A stretch of DNA of 64,000 nucleotides from a virus (lineage: Duplodnaviria; Heunggongvirae; Uroviricota; Caudoviricetes): the IMG/VR virus record IMGVR_UViG_3300027749_005140, positions 64,001 through 128,000 of that record; one strand, given 5' to 3'. The notes under the pieces are model-generated. The model was not told the origin of the DNA. It saw only the letters and a program-made list of their open reading frames with translations, and did not search any database. The position numbers and the translations under genes are program-made. This document shows, in pieces, positions 5,281 to 63,357 of this stretch (position 1 is its first letter; every line of letters begins with the position of its first letter).

Positions 5281-5381
5281 ATTTTTATGATAATTTTAAT
5301 TTAATATATAATAAAAAATAAAAAAATCTCGACTTTTTTATTTTTATGATAATTATAATTTAATATATAATAAAAAATAAA
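5265..5381 (+). repeat. 58-bp tandem duplication (period 59) containing half a terminator and a TAATATATA motif
   Basis: aaatctcgacttttttatttttatgataatt(t/a)taatttaatatataataaaaaataaa at 5265 and 5324, one mismatch. Confidence 0.9.
5302..5310 (+). promoter_or_regulatory. Candidate phage late promoter TAATATATA (representative; + at 5361, 7183, 7905; - at 909, 3935, 18197, 37478, 41742, 42903, 45196, 54676, 60723)
   Basis: Exact 9-mer in intergenic positions shortly upstream of structural and capsid-targeted genes; analogous to the T4 late promoter TATAAATA. Confidence 0.6.
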
Positions 5382-5389
5382 CAATTAAA

Positions 5390-6658
5390 ATGTCTATATC
5401 TATTTTTGATAAAAACTCTTGGGCTAATTTACTTCCGAAGGAACTAACAGTAGTTACAAATAATGGTAAATTTACTTTAAAACTACCTGAACAAAATGGT
5501 AGCGAAAACATGGTAGTACCAGATTCTGGACCATCAACTGCAGTAACTGTTATTGCAGATCAAATACAAATCAATTATTCACAAAATACAATGGAAGAAT
5601 TCGGTGGTAGTCCAACAAAAGATGGTGAACCAGATACATTAGAGTTTGATATACATACTGTTAAAACTAATGATGGTACACAAGCTAATCCAGATAATCT
5701 GAAATTAAATGTAAATATAACTTATGGTGATGCACCAGTTTCTAAGTTTACAATATCAATGCCAGGTGAAACTGAGGTCGTTCATTATCAAGGATTTGGT
5801 TCTAAGTATGATCCTAATACTTCCTTTGGTTTTGAGGATGAATCTTTACAAGCACTTATTGACTTTTTTAATAGATTCGGGTTTAAATTAGATAAAGATG
5901 ATTTTACATTTCTTGATAAGAATCCTGATAGTTATACTTATACAGAAGCAGTTAAAATAATGCCAAGTTTTAATGGTGATGTTGTTTTAGTTATTAATAA
6001 TAGTAAACCACAAGAAAATAGATTTTTAACAAATGTTTTAAACTATTTAAAAATGAGAGGAGTTGATCATGTTGTTGCATCTAATCCAGAGGAAGTTAAA
6101 AAGAATAATACTGATAAAGTAATTGGTGCAATTTCAACCGGTTCTCAATATAGATTATCTAACCCAGAAACTGATAATGAATGTGCTGCAAGTACAGAAG
6201 CTTTAAATACATTGAAATGTCCGGTATTAGGTATGTGTTATGGAATGCAGCATATGGGTACTGAGAATGGAGCTAATTTAGCTACTTTAGATAAAACTTA
6301 TAATGATAAATCAATACTAAGTGAATATGATAAACAACATCCTTTATTTAATGGTTTAGATTTATCGGATACTCAAGCAAGCTTTGATTTTAATGATTAT
6401 CTTGAAAATTGTCCACAAGGATTTAAAACAATTGCTAAATTAGATGATAAAATAGCAGGTATCTCAAATGATGAAAAGAAACACTTTGGATTACTTTTTC
6501 ATCCAGAAGATATAGAAGACACATATGGTATATTAGATAACTTTATTGGAATGTGTCAACAAGGTCAAAATAAAAATGACGAACAAGTTATAGACCAATC
6601 TAAGAATGATATGAAATACATACAAACTTACGAAAGTTTTAGAAAAAAAAGAAAATAA
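5390..6658 (+). CDS. Unknown N-terminal domain fused to a class I glutamine amidotransferase-like domain
   Basis: PVLGMCYGMQ nucleophile elbow and FHPE complete the Cys-His-Glu triad; C-terminus ends MKYIQTYESFRKKRK. Confidence 0.7.
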   Translation: MSISIFDKNSWANLLPKELTVVTNNGKFTLKLPEQNGSENMVVPDSGPSTAVTVIADQIQINYSQNTMEEFGGSPTKDGEPDTLEFDIHTVKTNDGTQANPDNLKLNVNITYGDAPVSKFTISMPGETEVVHYQGFGSKYDPNTSFGFEDESLQALIDFFNRFGFKLDKDDFTFLDKNPDSYTYTEAVKIMPSFNGDVVLVINNSKPQENRFLTNVLNYLKMRGVDHVVASNPEEVKKNNTDKVIGAISTGSQYRLSNPETDNECAASTEALNTLKCPVLGMCYGMQHMGTENGANLATLDKTYNDKSILSEYDKQHPLFNGLDLSDTQASFDFNDYLENCPQGFKTIAKLDDKIAGISNDEKKHFGLLFHPEDIEDTYGILDNFIGMCQQGQNKNDEQVIDQSKNDMKYIQTYESFRKKRK

Positions 6659-6664
6659 ATAACT

Positions 6665-6910
6665 ATGAGTACAACTCCACAAATTCCACAAATTGAGATA
6701 ACAGAAGATCAAACTCAACGTTCAATTTCAGCTGCATTTGATTCAGTAAACTTAATCAATGAATTAAAATCAAAACCTTCCTTAACAGAAGAAGAACAAA
6801 CTAGAGTAGACAGAAACAAGGAACACTTAACAATAATGTTAGCTAAAGATTGGTTTGAAGCTGGTTTAACAGAACAACAAAAAACTGACATAAATACTTG
6901 TTTAGTTTAA
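6665..6910 (+). CDS. Hypothetical protein (81 aa)
   Basis: ORF with plausible start directly after the GATase gene. Confidence 0.6.
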   Translation: MSTTPQIPQIEITEDQTQRSISAAFDSVNLINELKSKPSLTEEEQTRVDRNKEHLTIMLAKDWFEAGLTEQQKTDINTCLV

Positions 6911-6944
6911 AATAAGTTGTATCTTTGTCAAAATAATAGAAACA

Positions 6945-7070
6945 ATGGCTGGTAAAAAAGGGCAGTTTGCCGTTTGTAAAGAATGGGCTAAACACTTGAG
7001 AAAGAAATACAAAAGAATCTTTTGGAGCTCAGAAAGAGCACTTTCTAAAAAAGAAATTAAAAAAATCTAA
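6945..7070 (+). CDS. Small basic protein (41 aa), not in ORF track
   Basis: MAGKKGQFAVCKEWAKHLRKKYKRIFWSSERALSKKEIKKI; TATCTTTG element at 6920-6927 and A-rich 5' region. Confidence 0.6.
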   Translation: MAGKKGQFAVCKEWAKHLRKKYKRIFWSSERALSKKEIKKI

Positions 7071-7196
7071 TAAAAATTAGGTGAATTGAAAACTTTATAT
7101 TACTTTTGTACTATATAAAAATATAGATACTTAAAAAGTATAGTATAAAATCAAAGAAAAACAAAAAGGAACAATAAAAGTTTAATATATAGTATT

Positions 7197-7295
7197 ATGA
7201 AAAATGTAAATAAAAATATAGTAGTTATGCCGCAGCCGATGCAGGATCAGGATCGTTTCACGAACCAGACTAACTATGTATTTATATCACATTAA
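7197..7295 (+). CDS. Putative attenuator leader peptide (32 aa) of the tRNA cluster
   Basis: MKNVNKNIVVMPQPMQDQDRFTNQTNYVFISH; GC-rich codon block ATG CCG CAG CCG ATG CAG GAT CAG GAT at 7227-7253; followed by a terminator and then the tRNAs. Confidence 0.6.
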   Translation: MKNVNKNIVVMPQPMQDQDRFTNQTNYVFISH

Positions 7296-7318
7296 GAAAT
7301 TACGTGTATAAAAATTAC

Positions 7319-7352
7319 AAATCCGTTAGTCTTTGAGACTAACGGATTTTTT
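7319..7352 (+). terminator. Rho-independent terminator between the leader ORF and the first tRNA (attenuator)
   Basis: AAATCCGTTAGTC-tttga-GACTAACGGATTTTTT; AGACTAAC at 7267-7274 is complementary to its 5' arm (7325-7332). Confidence 0.8.
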
Positions 7353-7371
7353 ATGGAATAAAATTAAATAT

Positions 7372-7444
7372 TGGAGGTATCGTATAATGGTAATTATCCA
7401 GGGTGTTGGCCCCTGTGATTTGGGTTCGAATCCTAATACTCTAA
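7372..7444 (+). tRNA. Atypical tRNA-Gln-like (anticodon loop TGTTGGC, TTG with G33; bulged acceptor stem); possibly a pseudogene
   Basis: Body closely resembles the tRNA-Gln at 7641; anticodon stem CAGGG/CCCTG; T-arm TTGGG-TTCGAAT-CCTAA; extra G in TGGAGGTA/TACTCTA. Confidence 0.55.
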
Positions 7445-7450
7445 CAAAAA

Positions 7451-7536
7451 CTAGGCATTGGGCAGAGGCTATACCCACCTGATTTGGGATCAGGATTCTT
7501 AACAGATAATCGTCAGTTCGAATCTGACTGCTTAGA
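7451..7536 (+). tRNA. tRNA-Pro(TGG) with a long variable arm
   Basis: CTAGGCA/TGCTTAG acceptor; CCTGA-TTTGGGA-TCAGG; 17-nt variable region; GTCAG-TTCGAAT-CTGAC; C1 and A73. Confidence 0.75.
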
Positions 7537-7543
7537 CAAAAAT

Positions 7544-7632
7544 AGTCGTGTGGTGGCAAAGGTTGCCGACCTGCCTGTCACGCAGGGTTGTCTTCGGACA
7601 TTTGTATGCCGGTTCGAGTCCGGTCACGACTG
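7544..7632 (+). tRNA. tRNA-Asp(GTC) with a long variable arm
   Basis: AGTCGTG/CACGACT, G73; CCTGC-CTGTCAC-GCAGG; variable arm contains TGTC-TTCG-GACA; GCCGG-TTCGAGT-CCGGT. Confidence 0.8.
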
Positions 7633-7640
7633 CAATATAC

Positions 7641-7713
7641 TGGAGTATCGTATAATGGCTAATTACCTCGCACTTTGACTGCGATAATATAGGTTCGATT
7701 CCTATTACTCCAA
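7641..7713 (+). tRNA. tRNA-Gln(TTG)
   Basis: TGGAGTA/TACTCCA; TCGCA-CTTTGAC-TGCGA; ATAGG-TTCGATT-CCTAT. Confidence 0.9.
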
Positions 7714-7718
7714 CAACA

Positions 7719-7793
7719 CGCGTAACGATCCACAGAGAGAGGTTACCCGACTTGGTATCGGGGTTATTGTCAGTTCGAGTCTGACTTACGCGA
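7719..7793 (+). tRNA. tRNA-Pro(TGG) (T37, C8 atypical)
   Basis: CGCGTAA/TTACGCG, A73; CCCGA-CTTGGTA-TCGGG; GTCAG-TTCGAGT-CTGAC. Confidence 0.8.
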
Positions 7794-7799
7794 CGAAAT

Positions 7800-7871
7800 A
7801 GTGCTGTAGCTCAGTGGAAGAGTGTCTGGTTGTCGCCCAGAAGGTCGCGGGTTCAATCCCCGTCAGTACTG
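7800..7871 (+). tRNA. tRNA-Asp(GTC) (G37)
   Basis: AGTGCTG/CAGTACT, G73; GCTC-AGTGGAA-GAGT; TCTGG-TTGTCGC-CCAGA; GCGGG-TTCAATC-CCCGT. Confidence 0.85.
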
Positions 7872-7875
7872 CAAT

Positions 7876-7895
7876 TTCGATTCCGATAGGGACCG
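7876..7895 (+). pseudogene. Orphan 3' fragment of a tRNA (T-loop, T-stem 3' strand, acceptor 3' strand, G discriminator)
   Basis: TTCGATT-CCGAT-AGGGACC-G with no matching 5' half, immediately before the endonuclease promoter. Confidence 0.45.
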
Positions 7896-7933
7896 ATAAT
7901 TATTTAATATATATAATAAAATAATTATTTATT

Positions 7934-8761
7934 ATGTATGAAAAAGTTTGTAAGTGGTGTGGTAATTTAATCTCTGTTGAAAAACAACAATCATTTGCAT
8001 CACATGTCGCTGGATGTATTATGAATCCAAAAGTAGAAGAACGATACAAAAAGAATAGTGAGAGATTCAAGGGTGTTCTAAAGGTTGAACGAACTGAAAT
8101 AGTTAAAGAGTGTCCTAAATGTAAAGAAATTTTTAAAGTAATTGCAACTGAATCAGAAATTAGACGTAATAAGGTCAGATTATTTTGTTCTAGAAAGTGT
8201 TCAAATGCAAGAATACATTCGGAGTTGACTAAAGAAAAAATGTCATCGGCATCAATTGGTATTATTCCTTATAATAAAGGAATTAAAAAAATTAAAAAAT
8301 TTACTTGTGTTAAATGTGGTAAAGAAGGTATTATAAAAAAATATAATAATAAACAAAAGTATCACTCAGAATGTTGGAGATTATCATCTGGTGGTATAAG
8401 ACAGGGTAGTAGTAGAGGTAAAAAGGGTTGGTATAAAGGTTACTGGTGTGATAGTAGTTATGAACTAGCATATCTTATTTACAATTTAGATAATTCTATT
8501 TTGATTGAAAGAAATAAAAATGGTTTTGAATATACTCATAATGATGAAAAACATTTATTCTATCCGGATTTCATAATAGGAGGTAAATATATTGAGATAA
8601 AGAATTATAAATCAGAACTTACTGATAGTAAAATATCACAATTTCCATATGAAATAGAAATATATTATAAAGAAGAAATGAAACCATTCATAGAATATGT
8701 AAAAAATAAATATGGTAAGGATTTCATAAAATTATATGAAGAAAATAAAATGGCGTTGTAG
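7934..8761 (+). CDS. Zn-finger plus PD-(D/E)XK (TnsA-like) endonuclease; probable homing endonuclease inserted in the tRNA cluster
   Basis: Several CxxC pairs; GWYKGYWCDSSYELAY, YPDFII, YIEIKNY; stop TAG falls inside the following tRNA. Confidence 0.7.
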   Translation: MYEKVCKWCGNLISVEKQQSFASHVAGCIMNPKVEERYKKNSERFKGVLKVERTEIVKECPKCKEIFKVIATESEIRRNKVRLFCSRKCSNARIHSELTKEKMSSASIGIIPYNKGIKKIKKFTCVKCGKEGIIKKYNNKQKYHSECWRLSSGGIRQGSSRGKKGWYKGYWCDSSYELAYLIYNLDNSILIERNKNGFEYTHNDEKHLFYPDFIIGGKYIEIKNYKSELTDSKISQFPYEIEIYYKEEMKPFIEYVKNKYGKDFIKLYEENKMAL

Positions 8762-8823
8762 CTCAGAGGCAGAGCAGTCGGTTCATATCCGTCAGGACGG
8801 GATCTCGGAATTCCCCAACGCTA
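8752..8823 (+). tRNA. tRNA with CAT anticodon (Met or Ile2) and a non-canonical T-loop
   Basis: GGCGTTG/CAACGCT; GCTC-AGAGGCA-GAGC; GTCGG-TTCATAT-CCGTC (one mismatch); GGGAT-CTCGGAA-TTCCC. Confidence 0.7.
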
Positions 8824-8828
8824 CAAAA

Positions 8829-8857
8829 TAAAAAACCTCTCAAATGAGAGGTTTTAT
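8829..8857. terminator. Bidirectional terminator ending the tRNA cluster
   Basis: AAAACCTCTC-aaat-GAGAGGTTTT between convergent units. Confidence 0.8.
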
Positions 8858-8860
8858 TTG

Positions 8861-9055
8861 TTAGTTTTCTAATACCTTATCGATATTAGCTTCTCTAACT
8901 TTAGCTTTTACAATACTTGGACTTTGCATATCCTCGTCTGTAATTCCTAATTGAGTTTTGATGATATTTAATAAATATCTTTCATTCTCCCATTTGTAGT
9001 TTGGTGCTTCTGACATATCTTCTGACATCATTCCACCACTAAAACTTTTGTTCAT
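8861..9055 (-). CDS. Small hypothetical protein with the C-terminal R-x-x-x-I-x-x-V-L tag
   Basis: Ends VREANIDKVLEN. Confidence 0.65.
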   Translation of the reverse strand: MNKSFSGGMMSEDMSEAPNYKWENERYLLNIIKTQLGITDEDMQSPSIVKAKVREANIDKVLEN

Positions 9056-9108
9056 AGTAAATTGTTATTTTTTAAATTATATATAGAAACATAAAATAAG
9101 TTTAACCA

Positions 9109-18172: not shown

Positions 18173-18250
18173 AATAATTTATTTTTTTTTATAATGTATA
18201 TATTAAAACAAAAACATCATTTTACATATAAAAAGAAAATAATTTTGTAT

Positions 18251-20224
18251 ATGCAAAAAGACTCAAAAATATTTATAGCCGGTCACAAAGGTATGGTCGG
18301 TTCTGCTATACATAGAAAACTAAAAGAACTAGGTTATACTAATATAATTACTTCAACAAAATCAGATCTAAACTTAAAAAATCAAGAAGATGTTAGATTT
18401 TTTTTCTGGCATCATTCTTTTGAATATGTTTTCTTATGTGCTGCCAAAGTTGGTGGTATAAAAGCTAATTCAGACTTTAAAGCAGACTTTATCTATGATA
18501 ATATAATGATACAATCTAATATTATTCATTCCGCTAAACATTTTGGAGTTAAAAAACTTCTTTTCTTAGGTTCATCTTGTATTTATCCCAAGTTATGTCA
18601 ACAACCAATCAAAGAAGAATACTTACTTACTGGTTCATTAGAACCAACCAACGATTCGTATGCTATAGCTAAGATTGCTGGTATTAAAATGTGTCAAAGT
18701 TTTAATGAACAGTATGGTACTAATTTTATTTCAGTTATGCCAACAAATCTTTATGGTCAATGCTTTTCACACGATACTGATGTATTAACACCTAAAGGTA
18801 TCAAAAATATTAAAGACATTAAAATAGGTGATGAAATTTATACATTGAATCCAACATCACACAATGTTGAGATAGAAAAAGTTATTGCAACACAAACTAC
18901 AAAAACTAATGAATTTTTTAACTTCAAATCCAGAGGATGTGATTTTAGAGTAACACCTGATCATAAAATCTATTATAAAACATCAACAAAATATGTTAAA
19001 AGAGAGGCAGAAATATTCAGAAATATAGCAGGTAAAGAATATGGTCAAATAACATTAGCACATCATAATATTATAGAAAATAATAAGATGTATCAATTTG
19101 ATTTGAAAAAATATAAAGATGATAAACACATATTACGATATGATAACTATATGAAAGATGGAAAACATAGTAATTATAAATATTATCCAACCGAATATGA
19201 TCTATTGGATATTTGTGAATTTATAGGTTGGTATGTATCAGAAGGTTCAATATTAGATAATAAAAAAACAAAATATGATAATTTAGATTGTGGTCAGATA
19301 AGAATATCGCAACACAAATTCATAAATCCTGAAAATTATAGTGAAATAGACAATTTATTAACACGTATGGGAATATCATATGGGAAAGATAATTTTGCAT
19401 TTTACTTCACATCAAGAGCATTAAAAACTTTTATTAGAGAAGAAATTGGAGTAGGTTCTAATAATAAAAAAATACCTAATTTTATATATGAGTTGTCATC
19501 AGAATATAGATTAAAAGTTTTTAAATCTTTAATGAAAGGAGATGGTAATAAAAGTGGATTTAGATATAATACAAAGTCAATTCAACTTAGAGATGATTTT
19601 GTTTTATTGGCATTTTCACTAGGTATAAAAACATCATATTCCTTTAGTGGAGTCTGGAGAATTAACATAAGAAATATAAGTGAGAAAGTAACAGTTAAAT
19701 ATAAAAATATAAACATAGAAAATATAAATAATGAAGCAGTCTATTGTGTAACTACTGAGAAAAATCATATAATATATGCCGGTAGAAATGGTAAATTTAA
19801 TTGGATAGGCCAATGTGATAACTATGATTTGAATAACTCACACGTACTTCCTGCAATGATTAGAAAGTTTCACGAAGCTAAAATCAATAATTTACCACAC
19901 GTAGAAATATGGGGTGACGGTTCTCCAATGAGAGAGTTTTTATTTGTTGATGATCTAGCAGATGCTTGTTTACATCTAATGGAAAATTACAATGATTCTG
20001 AAATAGTAAACATTGGTACTGGTGAAGATATAACAATTAAAGATCTAGCTTACTTAGTAAAAGAAGTAGTTGGATTTAAAGGTAATATACTTTTTAATTC
20101 ACAAATGCCTAATGGAACACCTAGAAAACTATTAGATGTTTCCAAACTTACAAACTTAGGATGGCAATATAAAATATCTCTTAAAGAAGGTATAGAAAAA
20201 ACATATGTAGATTATGTCAAATAA
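18251..20224 (+). CDS. fcl: GDP-L-fucose synthase interrupted by an intein
   Basis: [39 protein letters not shown]|...|[29 protein letters not shown]; about 306 aa after intein removal. Confidence 0.92.
18761..19813 (+). mobile_element. LAGLIDADG-containing intein (351 aa) ending in Gln
   Basis: Begins CFSHDTDV; VTPDHKIY block B; [10 protein letters not shown] and LMKGDGN LAGLIDADG blocks; [10 protein letters not shown] block F; ends WIGQ followed by extein Cys. Confidence 0.9.
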
Positions 20225-29404: not shown

Positions 29405-30079
29405 ATGAAAGTTGCTATTTGTATATCTGGTCATGTTAGATCACTTGATAAATGTATTCAAAACATAAGAGAAAATATATTCTACCCGATAAAAAGTGAA
29501 TTCGATACTGATATATTTCTATCAACATGGTCTACTGATAAAGACTTATCTTTTTTAAATGAAGATAGTGTTACTATTGAAGTTGAACCTACAATAGACT
29601 TTAGAATGAATTCAAAAAATTATCTAAAATATCCAAACCTATGTTGTCAAACAACTTGTGATAATGCTACATCTATGTGGTATAAAGTTAAAAAATCTTT
29701 TGATATGACAAATGATGAACATCAGATAATAGTTAGAATTAGACCTGATGTTATCTATGATACTAAAATAGATTTAAGTCAAATAATTGATTCTTATTCT
29801 AATGATAATATCTACATGTCAGAATCACCAGGCCGATACTTAGAAGTAACTAAGGGTATGTTAGATCCATTCATATTTGGTAATAGAAAGGTTATGTCAA
29901 ACCTAATGAATACTTATAACAATATTGAAGAATATGTTAAAGATGATAATATAGTACATTGTATTGAAGGATTTTTATACGAGAATACAAAAAATAATAA
30001 ATTAGAAAGAATTGATTTCAAATACTCTATTCTTAGAGAGAATGGAAATATAGATAAGTGTTATATTGAGAATAAATAA
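29405..30079 (+). CDS. Glycan-locus protein, paralog 2
   Basis: MKVAICISGHVRS, IVRIRPD. Confidence 0.5.
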   Translation: MKVAICISGHVRSLDKCIQNIRENIFYPIKSEFDTDIFLSTWSTDKDLSFLNEDSVTIEVEPTIDFRMNSKNYLKYPNLCCQTTCDNATSMWYKVKKSFDMTNDEHQIIVRIRPDVIYDTKIDLSQIIDSYSNDNIYMSESPGRYLEVTKGMLDPFIFGNRKVMSNLMNTYNNIEEYVKDDNIVHCIEGFLYENTKNNKLERIDFKYSILRENGNIDKCYIENK

Positions 30080-62320: not shown

Positions 62321-62770
62321 CTTTTTATTTCTTTCGATAATCATTTCCTCTGGTGTTAGTAATCCTCTACCAAACAATTTAACTCTATCGTCATATCTTT
62401 TCTTAACTCTTTCTGAAATTGGCACTGGTGCTCCTTCATCATCAATTCTAACGAATACCATTTTAGTCGAACAAACTAAATCTTGAACACCTGTATAAAC
62501 ATTATGTTTTCTTGCTTCAAGATTGATTGTAATAGATGTATTACCTATCTTCTCAACACTACCATATATCTTAATTAAGTTACCAGTTTTAACTGGTCTT
62601 TGAAAAATTACTTCTTCAATTTTCTTTGTAACCATTCTTGGTGTATCACAAATCTGACAACAATAAACTGCTGCAGACTCGTCTAAAATTGACATCATTT
62701 CACCACCAAATAAATTTCCATGTACTCCTATCTGTGAGGCCATACACACTCTTGTTGTAATTAGTTCCAT
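62303..62770 (-). CDS. Hotdog-fold acyl-CoA thioesterase (YciA-like)
   Basis: GVHGNLFGGEMMSILDESA, VT, F-x-RPV-x-G-x-L, GNTSI, MVFVRID-x2-G-x-PVP. Confidence 0.85.
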   Translation of the reverse strand: MELITTRVCMASQIGVHGNLFGGEMMSILDESAAVYCCQICDTPRMVTKKIEEVIFQRPVKTGNLIKIYGSVEKIGNTSITINLEARKHNVYTGVQDLVCSTKMVFVRIDDEGAPVPISERVKKRYDDRVKLFGRGLLTPEEMIIERNKKKKEDK

Positions 62771-62773
62771 TAT

Positions 62774-63187
62774 TTATATTTTAATTATTTCTACCCCTGC
62801 TTCTCTTAAAAACTCTACACCAGTTATATCTTTGTAATCTTCGTGATAAACTAATCTTTTAATTCCTGATTGAAGAACTAATTTAGAACAATCTCTACAC
62901 GGAGAATGTGTTTGATATAATGTTGCACCATCACAAGATTGACCGTGTTTAGCACATTTTAAGATAGCATTTGCTTCTGCGTGAATAACAAACCAATTAG
63001 TTTCATCATTAGTCTCACAGCAGTTATCAAACCCTGTCGGTGTTCCATTGTAACCATCTGATACAATCATACCATTTTTTACAATTATGGCTCCTACTTG
63101 TTTTCTAGTACAATGTGAAAGTGTTGCCCACTCGTGAGCCATATTTAGATATACTTTATCGTATCTTTCTTGTTTTTCCTTTTCCAT
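62774..63187 (-). CDS. dCMP deaminase (ComEB-like)
   Basis: SHC-x-R-x-QVGAIIV, GYNG-x-P-x-G, HAEANAI, SPC-x2-C. Confidence 0.9.
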   Translation of the reverse strand: MEKEKQERYDKVYLNMAHEWATLSHCTRKQVGAIIVKNGMIVSDGYNGTPTGFDNCCETNDETNWFVIHAEANAILKCAKHGQSCDGATLYQTHSPCRDCSKLVLQSGIKRLVYHEDYKDITGVEFLREAGVEIIKI

Positions 63188-63357
63188 TTCATTATTCTTT
63201 TAATTTTACCAATACGTCTATGTTTTCTGAGTATCTTATGAAACTCTTCATAAGTTTCTTTTGAAGTAACAACATAATTAGCAGAACCTCTTATAGAAGC
63301 TCTACTAATCTCATTTGCTGCTTTACTTATCTTACTAATTAAAGATCGATTATCCAT
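63145..63357 (-). CDS. Small protein carrying a gp23 major-capsid-like segment plus the tag
   Basis: LISKISKAANEISRASIRGSANYVVTS; then RRIGKIKRIM; start moved to ATG 63357. Confidence 0.55.
   Translation of the reverse strand: MDNRSLISKISKAANEISRASIRGSANYVVTSKETYEEFHKILRKHRRIGKIKRIMKWKRKNKKDTIKYI

Follow-up and report, generated by a model that had tools for sequence, protein, structure and literature searches.

We found that a tRNA gene cluster of a Caudoviricetes virus is preceded by a short open reading frame (ORF) and a transcription terminator that together probably constitute a ribosome-mediated (leader-peptide) transcription attenuator, which would gate the phage tRNA operon by sensing the very aminoacyl-tRNAs that the operon encodes. 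The DNA analysed here (the window; 64,000 nucleotides) comprises bases 64001–128000 of the 131,933-bp virus record IMGVR_UViG_3300027749_005140 (G+C, 29%); positions are those of the window unless given as genome positions. Every structural feature of an attenuator that could be tested was found in the unit (Table 1), which would thereby represent a known type of device with a new target, tRNA genes. The computations bring out its anatomy, a non-random match between leader and tRNAs, conservation of the reading frame, covariation in the terminator, and alternative RNA folds. The original prediction, in which leader-peptide attenuation of the tRNA cluster was read from the letters alone, is supported by the tracking of tRNA content by the leaders, by the folds with a masked ribosome-covered part and by the lack of a promoter-like site after the terminator.

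Table 1. Features of the leader and the tRNA operon, with positions in the window
Feature	Position	Strand	Remarks
Host-type promoter-like block	7067–7098	+	TTAG, 20 nt, TACTTTTG; read from sequence
TAATATATA motif	7183–7191	+	5 nt before leader ATG; phage promoter-like signal
Leader ORF, 32 codons	7197–7295	+	kept in frame among homologues
Region 1 (anti-antiterminator)	7216–7226	+	predicted to pair with region 2 when leader is untranslated
Control run, codons 11–19, Met-Pro-Gln-Pro-Met-Gln-Asp-Gln-Asp	7227–7253	+	unique in genome
Region 2	7267–7279	+	core 7267–7274 (AGACTAAC); alternative partners, region 1 or terminator 5′ arm
Intrinsic terminator, regions 3 and 4	7319–7355	+	arms 7319–7332 and 7336–7349, 3-nt loop, T-tail
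Gln-like tRNA (UUG)	7372–7445	+	ARAGORN; Rfam 32 bits
tRNA-Pro (UGG), 87 nt, long variable arm	7451–7537	+	ARAGORN; Rfam 40 bits
tRNA-Asp (GUC), 90 nt, long variable-arm hairpin	7544–7633	+	ARAGORN; Rfam 38 bits
tRNA-Gln (UUG), canonical	7641–7714	+	ARAGORN; Rfam 60 bits
tRNA-Pro (UGG), canonical length	7719–7794	+	ARAGORN
tRNA-Asp (GUC), canonical	7800–7872	+	ARAGORN; Rfam 64 bits
HNH-endonuclease-like ORF	7934–8761	+	PHROG 1271, E = 3e-5
tRNA, anticodon CAU, U-U mismatch in anticodon stem	8752–8823	+	Rfam 43 bits; missed by ARAGORN
Operon-closing terminator	8832–8855		symmetric hairpin, usable from either strand

A codon run that matches the downstream tRNAs

The TAATATATA motif and, after it, a 32-codon ORF containing the control run had been proposed as the start of the unit, and both are present where they had been placed. 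The control run reads ATG CCG CAG CCG ATG CAG GAT CAG GAT and is the sole run of at least seven Pro, Gln, Asp or Met codons in the six frames of the 132-kb genome. Nine such codons in a row would be expected by chance at a probability of approximately 4e-8 when the protein composition is considered, and of 5e-10 when the base composition is considered. CCG represents 5% of the Pro codons in the long ORFs of the phage as against two of two in the run, and CAG represents 14% of the Gln codons as against three of three. The Met, Pro, Gln and Asp codons of the run are cognate to the tRNA set encoded downstream, that is, tRNAs for Gln, Pro and Asp and one with a CAT anticodon (CAU in the RNA). tRNAs were called with ARAGORN and with Rfam at a cut-off of 29 bits, and these calls confirmed the anticodon order that had been read by eye: Gln-like, Pro, Asp, Gln, Pro, Asp and CAT. 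The first tRNA begins 20 nt beyond the T-tail of the terminator.

The GC-rich run has 10 nt (GGATCAGGAT) in common with the anticodon arm of the 87-nt tRNA-Pro. An origin of the run from a tandem repeat or a tRNA fragment was considered and set aside, as the in-frame conservation and the synonymous variation across homologues (see below) explain the run better.

Alternative folds of the leader RNA

A U-tailed hairpin does lie between the ORF and the tRNAs, as originally predicted, while its stem measures 14 bp rather than the 13 bp assigned to it. The stem is perfect (−18.4 kcal/mol, z = −6.5), and none of 200 shuffled sequences folded as well. The core of region 2, AGACTAAC, which follows the control run, repeats part of the 3′ arm (7337–7344) exactly and is hence complementary to 7325–7332 of the 5′ arm; this exact complementarity, a key element of the proposed switch, was borne out.

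We examined the folds that the leader RNA is predicted to adopt with and without a ribosome. In the fold of the untranslated leader (7210–7285), 7216–7226 pairs with 7268–7279 to enclose the control run (−16.8 kcal/mol, z = −2.5), and the terminator forms. We then masked the stretch covered by a ribosome stalled anywhere in the run (7190 through 7250–7265) and ended the transcript before the 3′ arm exists (at 7333–7340). The lowest-energy structure now was the pairing of 7267–7274 with 7325–7332, closed over an inner hairpin, the masked nascent-transcript structure as a whole having −13.1 kcal/mol (z = −2.3). Masking, which had been suggested as a check, thus switches the predicted structure from the 1:2 hairpin plus terminator to the antiterminator. 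In the full-length leader, the lowest-energy folds contain the terminator whatever is masked, and the antiterminator appears in the folds of nascent transcripts only, as expected for a kinetic switch; therefore, thermodynamics alone is no proof of switching.

An independent promoter downstream of the terminator, another point raised with the original prediction, was looked for as well, and the 20 nt that separate the T-tail from the first tRNA contain no promoter-like site. A search of positions 6800–9100 against Rfam (E ≤ 1) returned no T-box or other curated leader family, apart from weak matches driven by terminator hairpins. Among these, Phe_leader scored 23–26 bits against its cut-off of 55, on the other terminator (8826–8888), and the other curated leader families (His, Thr, Trp and Leu) were unmatched.

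Homologous leaders are conserved as a reading frame and as an RNA

Pattern scans identified a homologous leader and terminator on four IMG/VR contigs and at no fewer than 60 other viral or metagenome loci, a typical leader reading ...NPQPQ(VVI)DQDP...ANYVF.... All the homologues that passed a filter for a short ORF and any tRNA within 120 nt have Pro, Asp or Gln tRNAs approximately 3–105 nt downstream. Because the patterns required Asp-Gln-Asp codons, that part of the leader was fixed by the search, whereas no constraint was placed on which tRNAs lie downstream. The pattern that yielded the majority of the homologues required both antiterminator strands; a looser pattern without this requirement returned mostly unrelated sequences, with at least 11 unconstrained homologues among the matches listed. 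Many IMG/VR and metagenome contigs yielded homologous leaders, and the design is common among uncultured huge phages.

We aligned 51 distinct homologues. Within the ORF, all 267 gap runs have lengths that are multiples of three, as compared with 75, 46 and 111 gap runs of lengths 0, 1 and 2 modulo 3, respectively, past the stop codon. Variation in the Pro and Gln codons is limited to the third position (A16, C4, G19 and T12 at one Pro codon; A28 and G20 at one Gln codon), and the core of region 2 is conserved at all three codon positions. The in-frame gaps, the synonymous variation and the conservation of region 2 therefore point to a translated frame in which codon identities matter and which is overlapped by a constraint on RNA structure. 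The terminator stem covaries: 24 alignment cells are changed on both sides, against 4.3 in shuffled alignments, and none of 500 shuffles reached the observed value. The 2:3 (antiterminator) pairing is kept in 97.8% of the alignment cells, and the 1:2 pairing, between the region 2 core and the equivalent upstream segment, is part of the lowest-energy fold in 46 of the 51 homologues.

The relatives also differ in how their tRNAs are grouped. Many have their Gln tRNAs in a separate block behind a second homologous leader, which contains a run of 4–7 Gln codons, and these poly-Gln leaders are followed by Gln tRNAs only in 24 of the 24 cases with a tRNA in reach. Met codons within the control run are confined to the lineage with the run MPQPMQDQD, as is a CAT-tRNA homologue downstream of the leader; no such homologue was found outside this lineage in approximately 30 loci for which 2 kb or more of sequence lies downstream. 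The link between Met codons and the CAT tRNA thus belongs to one lineage and counts as one evolutionary event.

Six modules with matched leaders and tRNA arrays

The upstream DNA of five further tRNA arrays of the genome, called by relaxed ARAGORN and by Rfam, shows the same parts. These are the TAATATATA motif 5–6 nt before an ATG (four of the five arrays), an ORF of 25–36 codons, a 7–8-nt copy of the terminator 3′ arm, located in the ORF past the codon run, a strong hairpin with a T-tail, and tRNAs approximately 10–25 nt farther on. A leader rich in Phe, Lys, Trp and His precedes tRNAs for Lys, Trp, Phe, His and Lys; one whose nine-codon run consists of eight Ser codons and one Arg codon stands before tRNA-Arg(ACG) and three Ser tRNAs; one rich in Ile, Ala, Glu, Gly and Tyr precedes tRNAs for Tyr, Glu (three), Ile(UAU), Gly (two) and Ala; one rich in Leu and Arg precedes tRNA-Arg(UCU) and four Leu tRNAs; and one rich in Asn, Thr, Val, Ile and Cys precedes tRNAs for Asn (two), Ile(GAU), Val (two), Cys (two) and Thr (two). 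Together with the Pro/Gln/Asp/Met unit, the six modules cover all 20 amino acids.

To quantify the match, we scored each leader against each array by the fraction of leader residues whose tRNA lies in that array. The true assignment of leaders to arrays was the unique best of the 720 permutations in this genome. The nearest named relatives in a phage collection are the uncultured-phage assemblies LR745206.1 (635 kb) and LR756502.1 (642 kb). In a synteny search, both matched the window gene 8861–9055 with no tRNAs around the match; their arrays were therefore located by an Rfam tRNA search, which gave 50–61 tRNA matches in each. With seven units in each of these assemblies, the true assignment was again the unique best, here of 5040 permutations. 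The three genomes are related and hence do not provide three independent tests, each within-genome permutation test being valid alone. These results, taken together with those on the poly-Gln leaders, agree with the expectation attached to the original prediction that leader codons should follow tRNA content.

The pairing between leader and terminator is likewise specific to the unit. Region 2 pairs with its own terminator arm at −10.3 kcal/mol and with the arms of the other five units at −2.7 to −4.4 kcal/mol. In the 20 units that the three genomes have between them, the best partner of the terminator 5′ arm is a leader segment just after the control run, in codons 14–27, and the pairing was better than that of shuffled leaders at p ≤ 0.05 in eight of the 20, where one was expected by chance. 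Leaders prefer their own terminator arm, the observed sum being reached by 2 of 720, 6 of 5040 and 20 of 5040 permutations in the three genomes.

The sole array without a leader ORF lies directly after a TAATATATA motif (genome 38156–38372) and contains two tRNAs with a CAT anticodon. One of these begins with CGCGGG and has a C1-U72 mismatch, like a bacterial initiator tRNA; an initiator tRNA could not be sensed by stalling in elongation. In the intron search, ARAGORN called a further CAT-anticodon tRNA, of 137 nt with a 56-nt insertion in the anticodon loop (genome 31286–31422), which ends the Lys/Trp/Phe/His operon; the leader of that operon also has two Met codons.

Promoter-like elements and the start of the leader

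Two promoter-like elements lie upstream of the leader ORF. The host-type block at 7067–7098 is kept upstream of homologous units in relatives and is located approximately 90 nt upstream of the TAATATATA-ATG start. Its resemblance to the Bacteroidota consensus (TTAG or TTTG, approximately 20 nt, TAnnTTTG) suggests a promoter of the sigma-A type. Transcription from it would give an RNA with an A-rich 5′ untranslated region before the leader ORF.

The TAATATATA motif occurs 35 times in the genome, as compared with 13.2 ± 4.4 occurrences in Markov-1 simulations, and in 14 cases, against 0.9 expected, an ATG follows 4–6 nt downstream. As many of these ATGs belong to ordinary genes, the leader starts like a normal phage gene; five of the six leader ORFs in the genome have the motif upstream. 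This arrangement suggests that TAATATATA is a phage promoter yielding leaderless or nearly leaderless mRNAs, and the present leader is perhaps carried on a leaderless transcript.

Elsewhere in the window, TAATATATA occurs in two tandem modules of approximately 59 nt (5302–5370), each with a terminator-like T-rich stretch, upstream of a GATase-domain gene (5390–6658). A metatranscriptome contig of a variant strain is colinear with 6952–7281 except for the absence of 32 nt (7109–7140), which lie between the two promoter-like elements.

The tRNA array and its setting

An HNH-endonuclease-like ORF separates the CAT tRNA from the rest of the array. It has a TAATATATA motif of its own (7905–7913), and it ends, with its last four codons and the stop codon, within the CAT tRNA. 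In the close relative L049, which is without this ORF, the CAT tRNA comes directly after a Gln tRNA and is followed by the conserved operon terminator. The CAT tRNA being contiguous with the array in L049, we conclude that it belongs to the operon and that the ORF is an insertion. The tRNA is probably an elongator tRNA-Met, a lysidine-dependent tRNA-Ile2 being the alternative identity. A similar ORF interrupts the Lys/Trp/Phe/His array (genome 30197–31207).

Many tRNAs are paired by anticodon, one member having the normal length and the other having 82–93 nt with a long variable arm. The long-arm forms include those for Pro and Asp in the present operon and, at genome positions, those for His (29957–30045), Asn (62552–62640), Ile (62637–62729), Cys (63008–63096) and Thr (63266–63347). 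Bacterial tRNAs with such an arm are normally those for Leu, Ser and Tyr. The long-arm tRNAs are kept in the relatives L046, L048 and L049 and are therefore probably functional. The Gln-like tRNA has the anticodon loop UGUUGGC, in which G replaces the near-universal U33; the same loop is found in L046 and L049.

Other products encoded in the window are ClpB-like and Hsp70 proteins and an epimerase with a probable intein, an outfit typical of huge phages. The epimerase ORF (18194–20224; NAD-dependent epimerase/dehydratase) has Hint/intein-like matches in its middle, and the gene is probably interrupted by an intein. The public runs containing most of the window are freshwater metagenomes. In four public metatranscriptomes, the assembled contigs cover small parts of the window only, none of them over the terminator or the tRNAs; because such contigs cannot show RNA ends or levels, no conclusion on termination is drawn from them.

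Proposed mechanism and its alternatives

From the features described above we infer translation of the ORF, ribosome stalling, regulated read-through and feedback, in the following order of events. Transcription would start at either of the two upstream promoter-like elements, and a ribosome would initiate on the 32-codon leader ORF. When the supply of tRNAs is ample, the ribosome would pass codons 11–19 and region 2 as regions 3 and 4 are being transcribed, so that the 14-bp terminator would form and transcription would end 20 nt short of the first tRNA. When any of the Met-, Pro-, Gln- or Asp-tRNAs is scarce, the ribosome would stall in the run and occupy region 1, leaving the region 2 core free to pair with 7325–7332 of the terminator 5′ arm; with the terminator blocked, the Gln, Pro, Asp and CAT tRNAs would be transcribed. 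If the leader is not translated at all, regions 1 and 2 would pair and the terminator would form. Because its products would be the molecules that it senses, the unit would operate as a negative-feedback supply controller.

Several observations weigh against this mechanism. The encoded UGG and UUG anticodons read the CCG and CAG codons of the leader by wobble only. The antiterminator has 8 bp and is far weaker than the terminator, and taken alone it is marginal when compared with shuffled leaders (z = −1.5, p ~0.1). In addition, no compensatory changes were found in the 2:3 pairing among the homologues, in which both strands are near invariant and were, for most homologues, fixed by the search pattern; in one homologue (L253) the terminator has another stem, whose loop contains the complementary segment. 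The stop codon of the leader (7293–7295) is 19 nt past region 2, and a ribosome located there leaves the region 2 core uncovered; the off state would therefore need timing and a re-pairing of regions 1 and 2. Relatives that have a separate Gln attenuator still retain Gln codons in the first leader. With regard to transcription, a polymerase that uses TAATATATA may or may not obey intrinsic terminators, and the CAT tRNA may be transcribed here from the TAATATATA of the HNH-like ORF and so escape the control.

The same attenuator hardware might respond to amino-acid starvation, to a failure of charging or to the timing of the infection cycle rather than to tRNA abundance, in which case the phage would raise its tRNA output whenever decoding of these codons slows, whatever the cause, and there would be no true product feedback. 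A device of this type senses decoding speed only and does not distinguish scarce from uncharged tRNA, as is established for the trp and his attenuators. Extra tRNA, however, does not relieve amino-acid starvation, and the module-by-module match between leaders and tRNAs would be difficult to account for if the product were of no importance to the sensor; we thus regard such a signal as unlikely. It is very unlikely that the unit works without translation, as an RNA switch in which tRNAs bind the codon-like run directly, in the manner of a T-box with several specifier triplets, and stabilise one of the folds. While the leader triplets are complementary to the downstream anticodons and the terminator and antiterminator folds are alternatives to each other, the Rfam search gave no match to a T-box or other family and nothing resembles the acceptor-binding bulge of T-boxes. 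Moreover, the triplets share a reading frame that runs from a start to a stop codon, none of the 267 indels in the ORF disrupts this frame, and the ORF starts in the same context as ordinary genes.

Terminators often precede tRNA arrays and AT-rich DNA has many short ORFs, so the hairpin might simply terminate transcription of upstream genes and the small ORF might be fortuitous, the tRNAs being made by leaky read-through or from an unrecognised promoter. This explanation is already strongly disfavoured, and we assign it a minimal probability: the run is unique in the genome, the ORF is kept in frame in more than 50 distinct homologues, six arrays share the design, and the match of leaders to arrays is the best of all permutations in three genomes. 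Furthermore, as both promoter-like elements are located downstream of the preceding gene and ahead of the ORF, the terminator is inside a transcription unit and not at its end. We give just as little credence to the idea that the leader peptide itself is the functional product, as a small regulatory or toxic peptide to which the tRNAs are adjacent incidentally. The homologues do share a conserved C-terminal motif, Ala/Thr-Asn-Tyr/Cys-Val-Phe, but this motif coincides with region 2 and is conserved at all codon positions, as a constraint on the RNA predicts, and the peptides of the six modules have in common only rules of composition that are tied to their own arrays.

Relation to known attenuators and significance

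A leader-peptide attenuator of the tRNA operon would resemble the enterobacterial multivalent attenuators trpL, hisL, thrL (Thr and Ile) and ilvL (Ile, Val and Leu). These likewise have a short leader that is translated and contains a series of regulatory codons (translation of the phage leader being predicted), four segments with mutually exclusive 1:2, 2:3 and 3:4 pairings, and a terminator directly before the regulated genes. Sensing of several amino acids by a single leader is likewise a property of the thrL and ilvL type. The phage unit differs from these systems in that tRNAs and not biosynthetic enzymes would be regulated, so that the sensed molecule would be the product; that up to four tRNA species are addressed in nine codons; that it resides in a phage; and that six modules cover 20 amino acids. 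The phage leader has no sequence or Rfam family relationship to them.

Components of the translation apparatus are also attenuated according to the state of the cognate tRNA in the pheST (pheM) attenuator of E. coli and in the T-boxes of Gram-positive bacteria, although these control synthetase genes and not tRNA genes. T-boxes, in addition, bind uncharged tRNA directly and without translation, and the phage unit is without T-box features. In mycobacteria, leaderless short ORFs with poly-Cys runs are cysteine-responsive attenuators (bioRxiv 10.1101/834739). They are similar to the phage leader in that the sensor ORF probably begins at the 5′ end of the transcript or adjacent to it and carries a run of the sensed codons; they differ in host group, in the genes concerned (cysteine metabolism) and in output, and a canonical terminator and antiterminator are visible in the phage unit.

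Al-Shayeb et al. 2020 (PMC7162821) deal with huge phages like the one studied here and count their tRNAs; 'attenuat', 'leader' and 'terminator' do not occur in the text of that paper. A full-text literature search found no published case of leader-peptide control of tRNA genes, an absence that is no proof of absence elsewhere. Compared with known systems, the sensed molecule would be the product, a modular set extends over the whole code, and the setting is a phage. To our knowledge, leader-peptide attenuation, a textbook mechanism, is known to control only genes for making or charging amino acids.

A broader scheme can be put forward tentatively, although we are inclined to doubt it as a whole. 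In such a demand-driven tRNA economy, six codon-matched attenuators would each switch on one block of tRNAs only when the codons of that block limit decoding, and would thereby rebuild a balanced pool of all 20 classes while the tRNAs of the host become diluted, are degraded or are cleaved by anticodon nucleases in the course of a long infection; the odd isodecoders that accompany the canonical tRNAs, with their long variable arms or altered anticodon loop, would be the nuclease-resistant part of this pool.

If leader-peptide attenuation of the tRNA operons is true, the ribosome would serve as a direct gauge of tRNA supply and would close a feedback loop. The leaders would also offer compact natural sensors for the availability of individual tRNA species, which may be of practical use. 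For the phages, such attenuators would amount to an evolutionary answer to the question of what phage tRNAs are for, as they would imply that the speed of decoding at the codons of its own tRNAs matters to the phage, and this question would become directly testable by reporters.

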